Positions 19,545-55,845 of a stretch of DNA of 64,000 bases are shown in pieces. This DNA comes from Eledone cirrhosa. Taxonomy: Eukaryota. Each line of letters opens with the position of its first letter. Positions within the stretch are counted from its first letter, which is position 1. The stretch lies in assembly GCA_964016885.1 (NCBI GenBank), contig OZ024747.1:71486001-71550000 (forward strand), given 5' to 3'. A program made the translations under genes and the position numbers. The notes under the pieces are model-generated. The model saw nothing but the letters and a program-made list of their open reading frames with translations, was not told the origin of the DNA and ran no database searches.

Positions 19545-19637
<93 letters not shown>

Positions 19638-19719
19638 GTATTTCTGTAGAAAAGGTAAAGGAAAGAAGAGTGCTCTATGTACAATACAGAGATATTTAAT
19701 TACATAATAAACAACACAA

Positions 19720-19796
19720 TAGAATTATTTCATTACCAAAGGTTTCAGGAAACTAGACAATCCTAACAAAAACGTCCATCGGATGAAATAGTTATA
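19720..19796 (-). ncRNA. Degenerate hammerhead ribozyme copy (inverted partner of 19798-19870)
   Basis: Minus: tataactatttcat-CCGATGG-...tctagtttcct-GAAA-CC-TTT-GG-TA-atgaaataattcta; core mutated. Confidence 0.55.
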
Positions 19797-19797
19797 C

Positions 19798-19870
19798 TAT
19801 AACTATTTTATCTGATGAACGTACTGGACGTTTCTAGTTTCCTGAAACCTTTGGTAATGGAATAATTATA
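19798..19870 (+). ncRNA. Type I hammerhead ribozyme
   Basis: Stem I tataactattttat/atggaataattata (13 of 14 pair), CTGATGA 19812-19818, stem II with actgga-cgtt-tctagt, GAAA 19844-19847, stem III A-CC-ttt-GG-T, cleavage triplet GTA. Confidence 0.75.
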
Positions 19871-21073: not shown

Positions 21074-21258
21074 AAGAATAAAGAATAACATGGTCGGCTG
21101 TACAAAAAGGGTTTATTTACAGTATTAACAATTGTTTCATTAATCAGGTGAGTACTCACAACCTTTAACTGTATTACCTTAAACGATACCTTGTTATCCT
21201 ATATATATATATATATACGTATATATATATATATATATACGTATATATATATACGTAT

Positions 21259-23677
21259 AAGCCATCCTCTCCTTCATCCACAACCTCAACCACAACCTCT
21301 TCTCGTTCCTCAGCTCCACCAAAGCCCGCAAGCTACACTCACTCCCCCCCCCCCCCCCCCCATCCACCACCACCCGCCCATCCCCATACGCCCACCTCTC
21401 CCCCGACCGCCACCCCCACCCAATCTCCACCCCTCACCACACCCTCCCTTCCCTCCCCTAACACCCAAACCCCACCCCTTGTTGTCACCATACCCCCTGA
21501 CCTCCCCCTCTCCGCACCTGAGCGCTCACTCCTTAGTAGAGGCCTTCGCTTCATACCCCACACTCCGCTCAGCGACGAGTTCCGCACCCGAACGGAAGTC
21601 GAGCGATTCGTGCGACTCACTAAGCTACAGGCACATTTCGGTCAAACGCCACCGGCTCCGGACGCGCCAGACCCGTTTCTCGCCCTGGGCCGACGACCAT
21701 CTTCTTGGACGCCGGCCCCAGGGCAATTTAGCACCCTGGACGCCTTCGTCGATGCCAGCCGTAGCGCAGTAAATCGTTTCGACTTCCGCCACCGTTTCAA
21801 ACGGCACAACATCTCACGGGGCGAACTCCTCGCTCTCCGCTCCCTCCGTAGCCGAGATGACATCGTCATCAAACCGGCGGACAAGGGAGGCGCCGTGGTG
21901 GTATGGCGCGCGGACCTCTACAAGGCCGAAGCCCTCAGGCAGCTCTGTAACCCCCTCTTTTACCGCCCTCTACCCTCCGATCCCACCCCCCTCTACCAAC
22001 AACAAGTCTCCTCCACCATCCAAGACCTTATCGCCTCCTCCCTCCTCCCCCCCACCGCTTCCCACCTCATCGTCCGCACACCCCGCACCCCCACCATCTA
22101 CTTCCTCCCCAAACTCCACAAACCCGACAACCCCGGCCGTCCCATCGTCTCCGCTTGCAACTGCCCCACCGAACTCATCTCCGCCTTTCTCGACTCCCTC
22201 CTCGCCCCCCTTGTCACCACCCTCCCCTCCCACATCTCTGACACCAACCACGCCCTGCGCCTTTTCGACTCCTTCACCTACCTACCCGGCCCTCAGCCAT
22301 TCCTCTTCACCCTAGACATCAAGTCCCTCTATACCGTCATCCCCCACGCCGACGGCCTTCGCGCCCTCAAACACTACCTCGACCTTCGCCCCTCCCCCAT
22401 TCCCTCCACCCCCACCCTCCTTCGCCTCGCCGAGCTGGTCCTCACCCTAAATTGTTTCTCCTTCTCGGGTGAGTTTTACCAACAGGTCACGGGGGTAGCC
22501 ATGGGCACAAGAATGGGCCCGAACTATGCCAACCTTTTTGTTGGCCATGTTGAGGCCCAAATCTTTGCCCAGTACACCGGCCCCACGCCCGAACTGTACG
22601 GTCGTTACATTGACGACTGTATCGGAGCCACGACCCTCACCCGAGTACAGCTCGACTCCTTTCTCTCCTTCTTCTGCTCCTTCCACCCCTCCCTCCACTT
22701 CACCACCTCTATCTCCACCACCCACGTCCACTTCTTGGACATCTCCGTCGCCTTCGACCCCTCCCACCACTCCCTCGTCACCTCCGCCTTCTTCAAACCC
22801 ACCGACTCCCACTCTTACCTCGACTTCACCTCTTCCCACCCCACCCACACTAAACTCTCCATTCCCTACTCCCAACTTCTCAGGATCCGCCGCCTCTGTA
22901 GCCGAGATGCTGACTTCGAGTCCCAAGCCCTTTCCCTAGTCAGCCATTTCATCCGCAGAGGTTACCCCCCCCTCTCTCGTCCACACCGCTCTCACCTGCG
23001 CCCGTGCTATCCCCCGCTCTACCACCCTCACCCCACGCCACCGCACACCCACCGTCTCCCCTTCCCCATCACCTACCACCCCTCCACCTTACCCCTCCAC
23101 CGCACCATCCGCCGCCTCTTCCGACACCTCCAGTCCGACCCCTCCACCTCCCACATCTTCCCAACCCCACCACTCCCCTCCTTCAAACGCGCACGCAATC
23201 TCCGCACCCTCCTCGTCCACAGCTCCCTACCCCCCAACCCACGCTCCGTTCCCCCCCCCCGGTTCCTTCCCCTGTTCTAGGCCCCGCTGCAACACCTGTC
23301 CCCACATCACCAACACCACCACCTTCCAGGGTCCCAACGGCCACCCTCTCTCGGTCCGGCATGCCTTCCGCTGCACCTCCTCCAACCTAGTCTACGGACT
23401 TCGTTGCACGAGGTGCAGCGCGACTTATGTCGGACAGACGGGACGCCGCCTGGCGGACCGAGTCACAGAGCACCTCCGGGACATTCGTCTCGGGGGCAGT
23501 TCCCCCATCGCCCGCCACTTTGGTGGCCCTGGACACTCCGCACACCATCTCACAGTCTGTGGCCTACTCCAGTGCCACGGAACACCCGCCCATCGCCTCA
23601 CGGTCGAACAACGTACTATCTTCCTCTTACAGACCCACACTCCCCCCGGCCTGAACTCCCCACCCTTATTCCTTTAG
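21259..23677 (+). pseudogene. PLE reverse transcriptase / GIY-YIG endonuclease ORF with frameshifts
   Basis: In-frame upstream of 21610: LSAPERSLLSRGLRFIP; then IKPADKGGAVVVW, YFLPKLHK, GRPIVS, TLDIKSLYT, GVAMGTRMGPNYANLF, RYIDD, FLD, KPTDSHSYL. After a shift at the C10 run (23251-23260): PCSRPRCNTC...NLVYGLRCTRCSATYVGQTGRRLADRVTEH...ARHF...E...GLN, stop at 23675-23677. Confidence 0.92.
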
Positions 23678-24153
23678 CGTTCGACCGCCCCCCTCCCCCA
23701 CTTATCCCCCACTAACACCACTAACACACCCCTCCTTTTCACCGCCCACCCCACACTAACAATACTAACACCTCCACTCCACCCCTCATCTAACCACCCT
23801 TCCCCAACTAACATACTAACATCCCTTCCCTCCCCTCTTCTCCTCCTCCCCCCTCCTTATCACACGCACACACTCACACCACCCACCCCACACGCAACTA
23901 ACATCACTAACACCCTCCAACCCCACGCACACGTACCCACACACCCTCGTACACCACCAACTCTACACACCCTACCCCCACTAACCCCCACTCACACCTG
24001 CATTCCACCCCTCCCCACCTCCCGTCTACTAACACCCACTAACACCTCCTCACCAAACTACACACACACCAGTACACCACACTCCCTCCATAGAACCACA
24101 CACACCCTTCTCTCCCCACTCCACACTCACTCATCCCACTAACACCCCTACTA

Positions 24154-24212
<59 letters not shown>

Positions 24213-25056
24213 CCTCACTCCAACTCTCACACCTACCCATTCTCGCCTCCCTACCATTCCGCTGACTGCTGCTATGCCCTTCCGACCACTGTCTCAGCAC
24301 CAACTGACCACAGCACTTCCACTGCTGACCACTTCCTGTTGCGCGCGCACCCCACATCTCTCCTCTTCCGACCACCGCTTCTTGGATTACCCACACGCGT
24401 TTTGACTTCCAACCAAAATCTCCATACATCCGTGTAACTTACCACTTTCAACCATCCTCTAACACCATCACCTATATAACTCACCCACACACACATCCCA
24501 AAACAAAAATTTTTTTTTTTTATCCACACGCCACCCACACCCACAACACGCTTAAACCACCACACACACGTGCTTCCCACCACATATTTACACCCTCAGC
24601 CCCCTGATTCCTCTCCCCCCACCCCCTATCCACACACGCACAGACCCTCCGACACACAAAAACACCCCCCACACACACCTTCCTGAACATGCAACCCCGT
24701 TCTTCCCCCAACCCTCACTTTCACATACACACACACACACACACACGCACACCTAACCACACACACCACCTTCAGCCCTCCCCGCTCGGACACCCCGTCT
24801 CCCTCTCCCCACTCCACCCGCCTCCACCTCTACTCACCCCACACCCTTCCACCACCTGTTTACCCCCCTTTTAATTTCAGTTTATTTTGATCATACCTTT
24901 ATTTTTAAATGTTCTCATTCCTTGTATTTTGATCATGCTTTATTTTTATTTATTATTTATTATATTTTTGTCTTTATTTGTTAATTTTTCATTCGCACCG
25001 TTTCCTTTCGCTATATGTCTCTCCACCACTCCCCTACACACCTTTTGAACTCTTAC

Positions 25057-25087
25057 CTGAAGAAGGGCTTATGCCCGAAACGTCGTC
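25057..25087 (+). ncRNA. Hammerhead-like core at Neptune PLE 3' end (no evident stem I)
   Basis: CTGAAGA-a-GGGC-ttat-GCCC-GAAA-CGtCG-TC. Confidence 0.55.
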
Positions 25088-25171
25088 CTCCACCTACCCC
25101 CCACTCTCCTGAGCGTGAATCTAATAAACATTTGTCGTACTGCCTCTCTGTTCTGTCCCTGTTCAATTTTT

Positions 25172-25209
<38 letters not shown>

Positions 25210-25261
25210 GTGTATATATATATACGTATATATATATACGTATATATATATATATATATAT

Positions 25262-26918
25262 ATGGAAAGTTATATTTAAAATTGTTGGGTTACAACTAGT
25301 AAATATTTATAACTGATATAAAAGCACTCGACAAATATTTGGAGTATATTTACAATATTAAATAAATGGAAACTATATTTATAAAACCATATTTATTTCA
25401 TTATATATATTTCAGGGATATCATATTAACAATATGCTATGCCTTCCTCAGACAAAATACAATATAAACAGTTTTATAGATAAATAGATTCGACATACCG
25501 TAACAACATCGACTTGCATTTGAAGAGGTTGATTTGGCAGTGAAAAAATTGTACACAGAGAGAAAGAAAGAGAGAAACAAGAAAGAAAGACAGAAAACGA
25601 AGAAAAGGAAGAAAAAGAAGAAATGCATTGAACAAAATAGAGAGATGGAAAGATAGATAAAGAGAAGAACTTCATGTAAAGAAACAGAAAGAGATATATA
25701 TATAGAGAGAGGAAATAGAGATAGATACATATATATATAGAAAATTAGGTAGTGGGAGGTCTGTTGAGTAACTGTATCAATGATACATTTATTTATTATT
25801 TATTTAGCTCTAGTACTAATGTAAGGGAGATATATAGAGAGAGAAAAAAATATATAGAGAGAAAAAATATAGCGAGAGAAAAAATTTAAAAATAACCAGA
25901 TATATGCGAGGCGTAAAAACCCTATGTTTTAACGTAGAGGTATTAGTATTTATAAAACATCCACTATATTGTAAATATCAGTATTCCTGAATGAGACAAG
26001 TATCCATAGTGTGTGAAAATTAATGATCTTATGTTTAGTTTTTTAAAAAAATTTCATATGTTTATGTGATAGCTACAAACATCCATGTGAATCTACATGA
26101 TCAACTCTGCAAAGCCTAAGTTCACGGAAAACATTCTCAATGTGGTATAAAAATTTGAGTATACATATATGTGTATTATTATTCCTGTCTTTACTCTACA
26201 AGATTATCTATCAAGCAGAAATAGAGAGCAGATTTCAATATACTAATAAAAAATATATATCAGAAACAAAACTAAAAAATAATAATAAGTAATAATAAAA
26301 TAGAAAACTAAAAAAATATTACGAAAGAATATTACATATTAAAAATATTACATATTAAAAAATTTACATATTAAAAATATTAAAAATAAAAATATTAGAA
26401 AATACTACAATAATAAAAAATAAAAATAAACCACAAAGATCAACCCTTCAAAATTAATTGACAATATATTGCCAAGTTCATTATAAGCATCAGAGTCGAA
26501 AAACAGATAAAGCCAAAAATTATCTAGCAAATCACATCTAGCAAAGATCATTTCAAAAAGTATTAGGATGCCCAATTTGGTCTACATGTGTTCTTATATT
26601 TAATATAGAAGTTTATCTAGTGTAACGTTTATTCGAAATATTTGGAGCATCAGCTTTTAGGGTAGCTTAATTTTTCATGAGGAATGTTTAAATAAAAATA
26701 AAAATAAAATAAAAATAAAAAATAAAAAAAGAATAAAAAGAAGGAATCAAAGATTTATCGGCTAGTTTCCCATATAAATATAAATCAAACTAAATATACT
26801 ACATTTTAAATTTAAATTTATATTTAAACGTTGAGTTTAATCTATGTTTGCAACAACTGAATAAATTTGTCCGTAGATTAAGGGAATTTTTAGATTTTAG
26901 TATAAAGAATATCTCCTC
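25262..26918 (-). repeat. 3' pseudo-LTR (includes the last 120 nt of the ORF)
   Basis: Near-identical to 29060-30716, with only a handful of differences seen. Confidence 0.95.
25388..25466 (-). ncRNA. Type I hammerhead ribozyme (3' pLTR copy)
   Basis: Minus: tatatt(g)tattttgt-CTGAGGA-AGG..catatt-gtt-aatatg..CCT-GAAA-TATATA-TA^-atgaaataaatatg; predicted cut between 25402 and 25401. Confidence 0.82.
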
Positions 26919-29012
26919 TGCGCAGAGGTCACATGTCTCAGAGGATGAATTAAAAGGAATCCCTCTTGAGACTATATTCCAAGCCGTCGAATATCTAACG
27001 TTATCTAGCTTAAGTTGCCAGAGTACGCCTGATAGTGCCGTTGAAGATTTTGTTCTTGGATCTGTGAAAGACTTCTTGTGGTTATTATAGCGAAGTTTAA
27101 ATTCCGTCGATGTGGAACCGACGTAGTTAAAAGAATTAGAGTCAGTATTAACATTACAATTGTATACTATATTTTTAACTAAGCAGTTGTTATTTAACGG
27201 ACATTTAGATCTATCTCTACAGTTACATTTGTTAACCTGTATATTATTTATGCTATTATCACTAGGTTTTAAGTTCTTATTATTTATTCTATTAATATTT
27301 TGTGCTAAATTTTTGGTGGATGAGTAGGTTAATTTTATTGTATGTCTATTGAAAATTGAGTGATACCTATGTGTTCTAGGGAAGCGATTATCAAGAGCTT
27401 TGAAAAATAGTTTAGCGATGTGGGTTTTAATGTTTAGTGAGAAAGGGGGGGCAAACCAAATTATGTTCCTAGTTCTATTTCTTTTTTGGCCTTTGGAATT
27501 ATTGTAATGCTTTCTATTATAGTTGTTAAGGTTGTTGCCGTAATTAAAAAAGTTGTTACTTTGCTTAGTTTGTCTATCATTATCTATGTACACAATCTTA
27601 TCAGCATATCCTGCTCTAGCTAATGCTTCATTATAGTATTGGGCTTTTTCGTCGAAAATCTTTCTATTCGACGAGATCCTAGAGATACGTTTTTGAACAG
27701 AGTTTACTATAGTGTTTTTGACAGATCTGGGGTGGTTAGAGTTAAAGTTGACATAGTTTAAGTTTTCATTCAACTTGTGAAAAGGATAGTGAAGACATGT
27801 GTTGAGATTTAATGTTATATCTAGGAAATTGACTATTCTATGGTTGTTCTCAATTTCTATTTTAAGATTAAAGTAATTAAAAAATTGTGTAATTTGTTTA
27901 CATTTTCTATTTAGTTCAGGGTTATTATTATCAATAAGTAAAAGCATGTCATCTCTATATAAACCTCCGGTAGTACCAGGTATTTTCCTATGTAGCGAAT
28001 TGATTAAAAATAAGCCCACAAGGTCAGTTACCTGAGCTGAGTCGGATGATCCCATAGTTATGTCAAAATTGCTATCTCTATCTGCTCTGGTCCATAGTTT
28101 GTCATTAAATTCTATCAAAGTTTTCCTAGCCGATAATATAATATGCATTTCATTGCTAGTTAGGTCAGTATGTTTGAATGCGTAATTTAGTGCCTTATTT
28201 AGTAGATTAGGGGTAATAGAAGAATAATAGTTAGCTATATCAAGTTGAATAAACTTATTATTATTGTTATATTTAATTTGCTTAAACCACTCAACAACCT
28301 CTCCAGTTCCCTTCCATAAGCTCAGGTTAGATAAACAATCCAAGTTCTTAATTTGTTGTATCACCCTGTCAAGAATGTTTTTGCTTAATTTGCCCAGGTC
28401 CGATTTTGATGGTGCGATCAATCTAACTGGCAGGTCATTTTCAAAATTCCTCTTGTGATCTTTCATATTGATCTTCGGTTTCCTGGGCACGAAAGGTTGT
28501 GTTCTGTTCTCAATTTCCAACTCGTGCATTATACAAGATGCTTCGACATTCATTTTCTCAAGTTCGGCCTTATCTGCTACCTTGTACTTTTTCCTCAGCT
28601 CTTTCAGTATGAGGCCATTATACATGTCTTTCTGCACTCCATAGAGGTTGTTGGTCTTGTCAGATTTCACCAAGATCTTCTCAGTTTTCTCTAAGCTCTC
28701 AATGTTATCCTTAATGCCTTTCAGATATTCCTGGCCTTTGAAGTTTCTCTTGAATTTGACCCCTTGTATGATAGAAATTATATCGTTTTCAAAGTCAGAT
28801 AAAAGTTTGTTAGGGGGTGGATTTCTTTTAGATTTGAAAACTTTGTTTAAGTCCGAGACATTTTCGTTTGTATTAGATTTATCAAAGTGGAATGCTCGCC
28901 ACCTGATTCTCCTTATAAAAGAGTCAGATTTATCAATTAATTGTTTTATAAAGTCTTTGTTTCTAGGTAGAGGTATGTCTTTTAGAGAGGAAGTAATCTT
29001 AAAGAATTCCAT
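26799..29012 (-). CDS. Intact 737-aa PLE reverse transcriptase with C-terminal GIY-YIG endonuclease (Hydra-clade-like)
   Basis: SLKDIPLP...IRRIRWRAFHF, KSDKT, PVRLIAP, IQLDIANYYSSI, TMGSSDSAQVTDLVG, LYRDD, VNFLDITL, SNHP; CNCRDRSKCPLNNNC, IVY-YVG-FKLRYNNHKKSF, CDLCAEE, CKHR; no stops. Confidence 0.93.
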   Translation of the reverse strand: MEFFKITSSLKDIPLPRNKDFIKQLIDKSDSFIRRIRWRAFHFDKSNTNENVSDLNKVFKSKRNPPPNKLLSDFENDIISIIQGVKFKRNFKGQEYLKGIKDNIESLEKTEKILVKSDKTNNLYGVQKDMYNGLILKELRKKYKVADKAELEKMNVEASCIMHELEIENRTQPFVPRKPKINMKDHKRNFENDLPVRLIAPSKSDLGKLSKNILDRVIQQIKNLDCLSNLSLWKGTGEVVEWFKQIKYNNNNKFIQLDIANYYSSITPNLLNKALNYAFKHTDLTSNEMHIILSARKTLIEFNDKLWTRADRDSNFDITMGSSDSAQVTDLVGLFLINSLHRKIPGTTGGLYRDDMLLLIDNNNPELNRKCKQITQFFNYFNLKIEIENNHRIVNFLDITLNLNTCLHYPFHKLNENLNYVNFNSNHPRSVKNTIVNSVQKRISRISSNRKIFDEKAQYYNEALARAGYADKIVYIDNDRQTKQSNNFFNYGNNLNNYNRKHYNNSKGQKRNRTRNIIWFAPPFSLNIKTHIAKLFFKALDNRFPRTHRYHSIFNRHTIKLTYSSTKNLAQNINRINNKNLKPSDNSINNIQVNKCNCRDRSKCPLNNNCLVKNIVYNCNVNTDSNSFNYVGSTSTEFKLRYNNHKKSFTDPRTKSSTALSGVLWQLKLDNVRYSTAWNIVSRGIPFNSSSETCDLCAEEIFFILKSKNSLNLRTNLFSCCKHRLNSTFKYKFKFKM

Positions 29013-29059
29013 TTTTCCAGTTATAATATAAAGCGCTCAACAGTATTGGAGCAAGATAC

Positions 29060-30716
29060 ATGGAAAGTTATATTTAAAATTGTTGGGTTACAACTAGTAA
29101 ATATTTATAACTGATATAAAAGCACTCGACAAATATTTGGAGTATATTTACAATATTAAATAAATGGAAACTATATTTATAAAACCATATTTATTTCATT
29201 ATATATATTTCAGGGATATCATATTAACAATATGCTATGCCTTCCTCAGACAAAATACAATATAAACAGTTTTATAGATAAATAGATTCGACATACCGTA
29301 ACAACATCGACTTGCATTTGAAGAGGTTGATTTGGCAGTGAAAAAATTGTACACAGAGAGAAAGAAAGAGAGAAACAAGAAAGAAAGACAGAAAACGAAG
29401 AAAAGGAAGAAAAAGAAGAAATGCATTGAACAAAATAGAGAGATGGAAAGATAGATAAAGAGAAGAACTTCATGTAAAGAAACAGAAAGAGATATATATA
29501 TAGAGAGAGGAAATAGAGATAGATACATATATATATAGAAAATTAGGTAGTGGGAGGTCTGTTGAGTAACTGTATCAATGATACATTTATTTATTTATTT
29601 ATTTAGCTCTAGTACTAATGTAAGGGAGATATATAGAGAGAGAAAAAAATATAGAGAGAGAAAAAATATAGCGAGAGAAAAAATTTAAAAATAACCAGAT
29701 ATATGCGAGGCGTAAAAACCCTATGTTTTAACGTAGAGGTATTAGTATTTATAAAACATCCACTATATTGTAAATATCAGTATTCCTGAATGAGACAAGT
29801 ATCCATAGTGTGTGAAAATTAATGATCTTATGTTTAGTTTTTTAAAAAAATTTCATATGTTTATGTGATAGCTACAAACATCCATGTGAATCTACATGAT
29901 CAACTCTGCAAAGCCTAAGTTCACGGAAAACATTCTCAATGTGGTATAAAAATTTGAGTATACATATATGTGTATTATTATTCCTGTCTTTACTCTACAA
30001 GATTATCTATCAAGCAGAAATAGAGAGCAGATTTCAATATACTAATAAAAATTTATATCAGAAACAAAACTAAAAAATAATAATAAGTAATAATAAAATA
30101 GAAAACTAAAAAAATATTACGAAAGAATATTACATATTAAAAATATTACATATTAAAAAATTTACATATTAAAAATATTAAAAATAAAAATATTAGAAAA
30201 TACTACAATAATAAAAAATAAAAATAAACCACAAAGATCAACCCTTCAAAATTAATTGACAATATATTGCCAAGTTCATTATAAGCATCAGAGTCGAAAA
30301 ACAGATAAAGCCAAAAATTATCTATCAAATCACATCTAGCAAAGATCATTTCAAAAAGTATTAGGATGCCCAATTTGGTCTACATGTGTTCTTATATTTA
30401 ATATAGAAGTTTATCTAGTGTAACGTTTATTCGAAATATTTGGAGCATCAGCTTTTAGGGTAGCTTAATTTTTCATGAGGAATGTTTAAATAAAAATAAA
30501 AATAAAATAAAAATAAAAAATAAAAAAAGAATAAAAAGAAGGAATCAAAGATTTATCGGCTAGTTTCCCATATAAATATAAATCAAACTAAATATACTAC
30601 ATTTTAAATTTAAATTTATATTTAAACGTTGAGTTTAATCTATGTTTGCAACAACTGAATAAATTTGTCCGTAGATTAAGGGAATTTTTAGATTTTAGTA
30701 TAAAGAATATCTCCTC
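29060..30716 (-). repeat. 5' pseudo-LTR
   Basis: Direct repeat of 25262-26918. Confidence 0.95.
29186..29264 (-). ncRNA. Type I hammerhead ribozyme (5' pLTR copy)
   Basis: Identical to 25388-25466; predicted cut 187 nt upstream of the ORF ATG. Confidence 0.82.
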
Positions 30717-30952
30717 CTTCTTTTTCTTCCTTTTCTTCGTTTTCTGTCTTTCTTTCTTGTTTTTTTCACTGCCAAATCAACCTCTTCAAATGCAAGTCGA
30801 TGTTGTTACGGTATGTCGAATCTATTTATCTATAAAACTGTTTATATTGTATTTTGTCTGAGGAAGGCATAGCATATTGTTAATATGATATCCCTGAAAT
30901 ATATATAATGAAATAAATATGGTTTTATAAATATAGTTTCCATTTATTTAAT

Positions 30953-30958
<6 letters not shown>
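30717..30958 (+). repeat. Inverted copy of pLTR end (reverse complement of ~25351-25620 with a ~26-bp internal deletion)
   Basis: Direct comparison; joins (TA)n at ...aatattgta. Confidence 0.92.
30843..30921 (+). ncRNA. Type I hammerhead ribozyme (inverted copy)
   Basis: tatattgtattttgtCTGAGGAaggcatagcatattgttaatatgatatccctGAAAtatatataatgaaataaatatg. Confidence 0.82.
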
Positions 30959-31397
<439 letters not shown>

Positions 31398-31869
31398 GTG
31401 TGTGTGAGTGTGTTTGTGTGTGCCTCTGTGTGTGTGTGTTTGTGTTTGTGTGTGTGCGTGTGTATGTGTGCGTATGAATATCTTATGCTAATTATTTCTT
31501 TAAAAAATAAAATATTAACTGGTATATAATAAAGAACAAAGGAAGTTCAAAAACGCCAATGAGGGGTTTAAAGAAATTCTGAAGAAGACAACAAAGAAAG
31601 AAGATTAAAATAAATTACAGATGTGAAATGTCTTACAGTATTTAATTTTCCATTCATTTGACTGAAGCTCTCGCTAAGAAAAGGGAAAGAAAAAAACATG
31701 TATTAACTGCTGACTTAGCTTTCTGTTTACTTTTCTAGTGGTCAGAGGAGAGTTTAATTTATGGCACAATTGTTTCATAAAACCTAGTTTGACAAATATG
31801 TCCGAACACGGAAGAACCGAACTCCCACTGTCATCGCGTCCATCTCTCTCGCCCTCCCCATATTTCTGT

Positions 31870-54225: not shown

Positions 54226-55845
<1,620 letters not shown>

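Follow-up and report, generated by a model that had tools for sequence, protein, structure and literature searches.

Two copies of a bulged hairpin in the leader of a Hydra-clade Penelope-like element from Eledone cirrhosa lie next to the sites of the two ends of its inverted insertions

Results

A Hydra-clade element between two (TA)n tracts

The window analysed here, a stretch of 64,000 nucleotides from Eledone cirrhosa, contains a Hydra-clade Penelope-like retrotransposon (PLE) on its minus strand, located between a left (TA)n target tract (25175–25262) and a right one (30958–31398). The intact ORF of this element (26799–29012, minus strand) encodes a 737-aa protein with a Hydra-clade reverse transcriptase (RT) plus an endonuclease of the GIY-YIG type at the C-terminus. 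The pLTRs are represented by a 1.66-kb direct repeat that flanks the ORF on both sides. The 3′ copy with the “tail” (25258–26918, minus strand) joins (TA)n at site A, and the 5′ copy (29056–30716, minus strand) is 99.6% identical to it. A short inverted arm on the plus strand (about 30712–30958) carries the element 3′ end at site B, joined to the right (TA)n tract, and both outer ends of the insertion are element 3′ ends. The 3′ pLTR copy contains hairpin B (25345–25323) and no hairpin A; the inverted arm contains the hammerhead (core at 30858) and neither hairpin. Close to the point of inversion (30712–30761), this arm is also about 29 nt short in a purine/pyrimidine-rich stretch when compared with 29330–29420.

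Read on the element strand, the leader is composed of the hammerhead, site B, hairpin B, about 70 nt, site A, hairpin A, and the ATG, all features being on the minus strand. The predicted ribozyme, a minimal type I hammerhead motif read from the sequence (29192–29257), features the core CTGAGGA (29249–29243), GAAA (29211–29208), and a palindromic stem III, with the predicted cut between 29200 and 29199. It lies 50 nt upstream of hairpin B and had not been mentioned in the original prediction for this locus. Candidate start site B (29144–29151) is a short TA-like patch before hairpin B, at which tail-less ends join (TA)n; hairpin module B (29121–29143) pairs ACTC with GAGT and continues with a TC bulge, an upper stem, and then GCT. 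Candidate start site A (29055–29062), at which tailed ends join (TA)n, is a short TA-like patch 4–10 nt before hairpin A. Module A (29032–29052) is composed of a 4-bp GCTC/GAGC lower stem, a TT bulge, a short upper stem, and then GCT, and is the last leader feature ahead of the ATG. The “tail” (29060–29149) corresponds to the about 90 nt between both start sites and contains hairpin B. A third small hairpin with TTGT..ACAA arms (29080–29093) lies within the tail; it is kept across the subfamilies of this family, and none was seen in other families.

The clade assignment is consistent with the published description of Hydra elements, which comprises protein motifs, a hammerhead, (TA)n targeting, an inverted 5′-truncated arm, and a one-sided tail (Craig et al, 2021, PMC8557442). 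The 737-aa translation contains RWR and DKT, in line with the RWK motif and the replacement of DKG by DKT in this clade, as well as the CxCX5C linker (CNCRDRSKC) and the CxxC (CDLC) and CxH (CKH) that the Hydra definition places near the C-terminus. YRDD is invariant in the RT, and VY..YVG was read from the translation close to the C-terminus. The protein model (pLDDT 92) has TERT as its best fold match. Pfam and PDB sequence searches with the protein gave no match, so the nuclease call rests on motifs. In this family, 27 of 30 ends lead into an alternating run of at least 6, and the hammerhead lies in the pLTR by sequence reading (29257–29192). The unit of 3,798 bp exceeds 3 kb because of a long 3′ UTR, whereas the Hydra elements of Craig et al are usually below 3 kb, a length described as general in the clade, not as diagnostic (PMC8557442).

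The target of this insertion is the (TA)n end of a Neptune-like PLE (about 21260–25170), in which we identified an RT frame (21169–23280), a nuclease in another frame extending to 23677, and a hammerhead at 25057. A second inverted Hydra insertion in the window (about 54286–54445) belongs to another family and forms a short palindrome with both ends in (TA)n, one being an A end (tail, with hairpin B at 54360–54334) and the other a B end. A third Hydra-like family is represented by a short inverted insertion (about 19635–19860) with a hammerhead core at 19812 (plus strand) and a module at 19692–19669 (minus strand) that has a T-A/G-C type outer pair.

The hairpins in the window

The original prediction described two degenerate repeats ahead of the ORF, and both are present on the minus strand at the places given (A, 29052–29035; B, 29143–29124), each followed by GCT and with the 2-nt bulge and the compensatory swap between A and B as described. 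The equivalence that it drew between termini and leader also holds: the left end (25258–25262) corresponds to 29056–29060, and the right, inverted end (about 30958) to about 29149. The TA-like patches that it reported are each one base off (TA)n in this copy, but this property is not general among relatives.

In the originally proposed fold the isolated hairpins are weak (−2.1 kcal/mol for A and −1.3 kcal/mol for B). Folding with flanks gave z-scores of −0.64 for hairpin A, −2.49 for hairpin B, and −1.50 for the whole 126 nt, and the MFE fold of hairpin A with flanks differs from the proposed one. An Rfam search with E up to 5 returned no covariance-model match over 29030–29155 and none to the hammerhead, and yielded only TA-repeat microRNA look-alikes below threshold. 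With such weak folding the window alone is insufficient to prove the hairpins; because of this, of the deviating MFE fold of A and of the Rfam result, the case rests on comparison.

Conservation of the twin motif

The motif was defined as NCTC-stem-loop, T-N bulge, GAGN-RCT, and an alignment of 36 proteins was used to retrieve 77 metagenome loci (32–38% identity). Among the 29 intact hammerhead-to-ATG leaders of relatives (33–40% protein identity; not de-duplicated), a strict pattern that left the bulge unfixed matched twice in 23 and once in 4, and 2 had no match, compared with 0.01 for the twin motif in shuffled leaders; the hairpins are conserved in relatives, as the original prediction required. 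By eye, a degenerate second copy is present in 5 of the 6 leaders missed by the strict pattern. Clustering of 73 leaders, a set that takes in truncated leaders and 21 from this genome picked via the twin pattern, gave 50 groups, with two 3′ anchors in 38, one in 5, none in 6, and three in 1. Across this genome the twin pattern occurs at 2,398 places versus 253 for a reversed control, and in at least ten families. The core CTC..GAG and the RCT are nearly invariant across modules.

Among six published Hydra consensi inspected by eye (PMC8557442), one has both modules, two have one at the tailed end, one is degenerate, and two have none. In the supplement of that study we counted 7 occurrences of the 9-nt 3′ anchor strings, 4 in Hydra consensi and 3 elsewhere, some others being hidden by line breaks. 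A covariance model built from 15 modules ranks the five Hydra modules first in the window, and on 43 further loci it gave 24 matches, 23 of them at leader or pLTR positions by coordinates; it gave zero matches in six Neptune-like loci.

We also considered whether the Neptune-like neighbour shares the Hydra module and rejected this, with no module in its internal copy (L420) or in five other loci. Across 30 copies, the Neptune-like PLE mostly uses one end site, and a single 37-nt tail was seen (L422).

Covariation above the bulge

A 5′ anchor accompanied 56 of the 61 metagenome 3′ anchors, and these 56 modules were scored by a script that counts from the anchors and leaves the upper stem unused in anchoring; a MAFFT alignment of 51 modules left the 5′ arms unaligned. 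The first pair above the 2-nt bulge is Watson–Crick in 54 of the 56 modules (41 C-G and 13 T-A), with a mutual information of 0.90 bits that none of 10,000 permutations reached. Alternative bulge sizes of 0, 1, and 3 nt give a Watson–Crick first pair in 0, 0, and 8 of 56, respectively. These comparative data back the proposed fold with its 2-nt 3′ bulge, and they supply the covariation that the original prediction had expected from the leaders of relatives. The second upper pair is Watson–Crick in 33/52 and the third in 23/36.

The signal is unevenly distributed. On a protein tree of 29 rows, at least 8 changes map to the C-G/T-A pair of module B. About five of five independent pairs change on both sides (p 0.0625), in a tree test that cannot reach 0.05 because it has 5 pairs only. 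Module A taken alone shows little covariation at its first upper pair (27 C-G and 1 T-A; 323/10,000 permutations). For modules from this genome the same pair is Watson–Crick in 13/19 (775/10,000), with several 5′ anchors ambiguous. A pair-count tool run on 15 equal-length modules gave a covariation score reached in 2/500 shuffles, the other measures being reached in 19, 26, 19, and 439 of 500. At the outer pair, 52 of the metagenome modules have G-C and 4 have T-A, and 7 of the 19 taken from this genome have A-T. The four T-A cases are both modules of one lineage (L119, L144), which suggests that the two modules are read by the same protein or homogenised. Three of the four lower pairs are invariant, and the signal is therefore partly sequence, not structure.

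Insertion ends lie at a fixed distance from the hairpins

To place the termini, we used anchors upstream of site B from four families, with 27,370, 11,847, 59,918, and 4,191 exact matches in this genome, and took the first 30 exact matches of each along contig C1, where neighbouring matches are often the two ends of one insertion. The resulting 120 matches correspond to 115 termini and 5 internal copies. The last unambiguous element base lies at −13 to −3 from the stem in 102 of the 115 termini, and at −10 to −7 in 90. An alternating TA run of 6 or more directly follows 101 of them, and the overlap with the (TA)n tract is 2–4 nt in 80, 5–6 nt in 10, and 0–1 nt in 25. In the four families, two discrete 3′ ends, A and B, delimit the tail; no A end carries a copy of hairpin A, and tailed ends include a copy of hairpin B. 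In the metagenome contigs we found 23 non-internal hammerhead copies, of which 7 end with the contig, 2 are artefacts, and 14 are evaluable. Their termini lie 1–6 nt before the stem in 12 of the 14 (two read by hand), and some sit in AT-rich targets other than (TA)n.

The original prediction tied the junctions to the hairpins as opposed to any TA-rich patch, and the element contains its own control: a perfect 8-nt TA patch within the hammerhead, 50 nt from hairpin B. This hairpin-less patch runs into (TA)n in 44 of 11,868 copies and continues as element sequence in 11,824, which upholds the link to the hairpins. The dinucleotide TA occupies −6/−5 of the stem in 24/56 of the relatives' modules (background 7.8%), and the patch before the stem has at least 6 of 8 (TA)n matches in 24/56 modules versus 0/56 spacer windows. 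Only 8/56 of the relatives' modules reach 7 of 8, and overlaps are usually 2–4 nt; the near-perfect TA patch is therefore a trait of this family. The hairpin probably determines the position of the terminus, and the TA patch is short.

Loose (TA)n ends at 29143 and 29064 also appear in three contig runs of a single study, which may represent the source sample and were therefore not counted as independent. A search of sequencing runs listed no RNA run holding the element. The family with 59,918 anchor matches (family 3; L169, L369–L387) has no canonical CTGANGA core within 150 nt before module B; it gives rise to numerous tiny palindromic insertions as well as tandem arrays whose units measure about 3.5 kb (C1 91.47–91.49 Mb). 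Short arms often share a stop about 137–139 and 173–176 nt upstream of the anchors (L332, L333, L346, L343, and L347 in family 2; L349, L357, L353, L365, and L367 in family 4), and this common stop may be the transcription start in the pLTR. A rule that arms stop at the predicted hammerhead cut was rejected, as this was seen in 1/20 pairs of one family (L366, both arms) and was not evident in two others.

These results bear on whether the modules have anything to do with priming. The nearly invariant core and RCT favour reading by sequence, and the modules lie directly ahead of the ATG, a region where a promoter is expected; they could accordingly be a promoter, translation, or packaging element, with other nearby cues setting the ends. 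The distance between terminus and stem is, however, constant for both modules in the four families and in the metagenome relatives despite differing flanks and spacing, and the covariation above the bulge argues against a motif read mainly by sequence. We consider such a role quite improbable.

Inverted insertions combine one A end and one B end

Eighty regions with facing anchors were classified; one without an inverted partner was dropped and one was re-paired by hand. Among the resulting 79 inverted insertions, 75 combine an A end with a B end, 2 are AA, and 2 are BB (P 2.6e-18 versus a coin toss), for pairs chosen from match lists with the end types of some known beforehand. This distribution supports the proposal of two dedicated modules, one for each DNA end. 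It also bears on an explanation in which the hairpins are RNA 3′-end signals for termination or cleavage, and reverse transcription begins at the 3′ end of RNAs that stop at A or B, in the manner of LINEs. In the related element PAc, the ends of RNA-seq reads do coincide with the RT start sites (PMC11167929), but two separately made RNAs would be expected to give about half A+B pairs against the 75/79 observed, and the RNA has to read through both hairpins before reaching the ATG. PAc initiation is, in addition, internal in vitro (PMC11167929). We regard 3′-end signals as unlikely.

The relative length of the arms was informative as to how they are made. Of 29 pairs examined, 22 could be oriented; 14 of these have a longer B arm and 8 a longer A arm, and a rule that the A arm is always longer was accordingly rejected. 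The long B arm holds sequence missing from the A arm, and the A arm holds the tail missing from the B arm. Each arm thus holds what the other lacks, so they were templated separately and neither is a copy of the other; together with the A+B rule, the finding that either arm may be longer indicates that both ends are primed separately on RNA. These observations contradict, in the 14 pairs with a longer B arm, a model of single priming at site A followed by fold-back and self-copying of the cDNA to give the inverted arm (proposed in PMC3846280), and simple fold-back is excluded for those pairs. Near-symmetric palindromes are common among short insertions (32/79 inverted insertions versus 16 by permutation, on a lenient measure), as fold-back would produce, and it could operate in this symmetric class. 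As a general account of the inverted ends we consider it highly improbable.

A model for priming at two internal sites

Based on this comparison, we propose that the hairpins probably act in the element RNA as docking signals that place the RT at two internal start sites, and we infer that the RT binds them. In this model, the endonuclease would cut a (TA)n tract on both strands. The free 3′ ends would each pair through 2–4 bases (often the TA at −6/−5), one with site B and one with site A, and the two cDNAs would be extended towards the RNA 5′ end. Joining of both cDNAs in the middle would yield an insertion in head-to-head orientation that bears the “tail” on one side only. Both primings would take place on one RNA–protein particle carrying both modules.

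Hairpin A is missing from A ends and from the target and must therefore act in the template. Since the inserted copy has both hairpins ahead of the ORF only, arms that contain the ORF would call for a template in which hairpin A follows the ORF; a circle produced by the hammerhead, an RNA that reads through a tandem array, or a template jump could supply it. Circular RNA made by the hammerhead has been proposed for PLEs (PMC4209133), and tandem arrays of the element are found in this genome.

The same hairpins might instead be read in DNA, with the endonuclease recognising them in single-stranded cDNA or a circular intermediate and cutting the nearby TA, so that the ends would be cut sites and not start sites. 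The conserved TA at −6/−5 is compatible with cut sites, and the strand test that bears on RNA versus DNA is weak (8 G-U versus 3 A-C) and is compatible with DNA-level reading as well. In the published accounts, Craig et al ascribed the tail to endonuclease-mediated resolution (PMC8557442), and the endonuclease of Drosophila Penelope depended on the tail for recognition, as cited in Frangieh et al (PMC11167929). Against this, both genomic ends of PAc coincide with in vitro RT start sites (PMC11167929). The polarity is also that of target priming, with the target 3′ end joined to the antisense strand at both ends. Strand transfer is not known for GIY-YIG nucleases. We regard DNA-level cutting as improbable and continue with docking of the RT on RNA.

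Discussion

The one-sided tail and inverted arms of PLEs have long been known (PMC8557442, PMC3846280). Our comparison identifies a clade-wide paired motif, probably read at the RNA level and tied to both insertion ends, that would be a variant within the known PLE mechanism. The closest precedent is PAc, a Poseidon clade element from Anolis, for which Frangieh et al (2024, PMC11167929) reported two internal start sites in vitro that define the tail, with both strands extended. The likeness extends to the arrangement of two start sites downstream of a hammerhead with the tail between them. As described in that text, PAc initiates within one AC-rich stem-loop, needs RNA to +172, beyond its start at +111–118, and has sites inside the ORF, a tail of 30–40 nt, no target homology, and no paired motif. 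A dimer is also predicted in that study. The Hydra elements differ in having two copies of one hairpin, 3′ of each start and in the leader, with a tail of about 55–90 nt; their termini overlap (TA)n by 2–6 nt in 90/115 cases, so the absence of homology does not extend to them. By eye, the published PAc template contains a UCUC..GAGA hairpin 8 nt after the +118 start, which we offer as a lead only.

The original prediction knew of no earlier description of paired modules, and this needs qualifying: we found no twin motif in print, whereas two-site internal initiation is published for PAc (PMC11167929). No twin motif, distance rule, or A+B rule was found in the text of the accessible literature searched, which would not reveal a drawing of such hairpins. 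The text searched in a retrozyme preprint (10.64898/2026.07.22.740005) and in PMC7229834 likewise describes none of the three. The words “hairpin” and “stem-loop” are absent from the main text of Craig et al, where the motif is visible but unannotated in three of the six Hydra consensi and degenerate in one (PMC8557442).

The resemblance to telomerase suggested by the original prediction covers a related RT and, in the proposed mechanism, an internal template, short primer pairing, and RNA structure beside the template. The telomerase template boundary element is a stem 5′ of the template that stops synthesis. The Hydra hairpins are 3′ of the template, would mark the start, and are associated with no repeat addition, and hairpin B is copied through in tailed ends; the likeness is loose because hairpin and boundary element lie on opposite sides. 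Other analogues in function may be the stem-loops found at the 3′ end of stringent LINEs, eel UnaL2 among them, and the hepadnavirus epsilon, in which a small bulged hairpin recruits the RT and fixes the start. The LINE loop is copied into the insertion, and epsilon templates from its bulge with a protein primer; both are single, unlike the paired Hydra hairpins. In LINE-1 twin priming, both target ends likewise prime on element RNA to give an inverted insertion. Second priming in LINE-1 is opportunistic and occurs at variable places, whereas in the Hydra elements the two sites keep their position and are accompanied by a conserved signal. LINE-1 twin priming is treated in PMC2837659.

A more specific reading, which we put forward tentatively, is that a pair of telomerase-like RTs would sit on one RNA, possibly a hammerhead circle, each priming one cut end at a fixed distance from its hairpin. 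If true, it would explain the tail and inverted ends of endonuclease-bearing PLEs in general, and the module of 20–25 nt would serve as a portable tag for inserting an RNA into (TA)n from both ends.

Craig et al named an in vitro system as the next task (PMC8557442), and Frangieh et al mapped, in the text of their study, only a 150-nt minimal region (PMC11167929). A motif of 20–25 nt with a measurable ruler and a one-of-each rule offers a small target for mutational testing, and it provides a marker for annotating Hydra ends. The findings bear on the origin of the inverted ends and one-sided tail of PLEs, on the RNA signal recognised by their RT, and on the reading of internal templates in telomerase's sister group. 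If the proposed mechanism is true, two-ended priming in these elements would be programmed, in contrast to the accidental twin priming of LINE-1.
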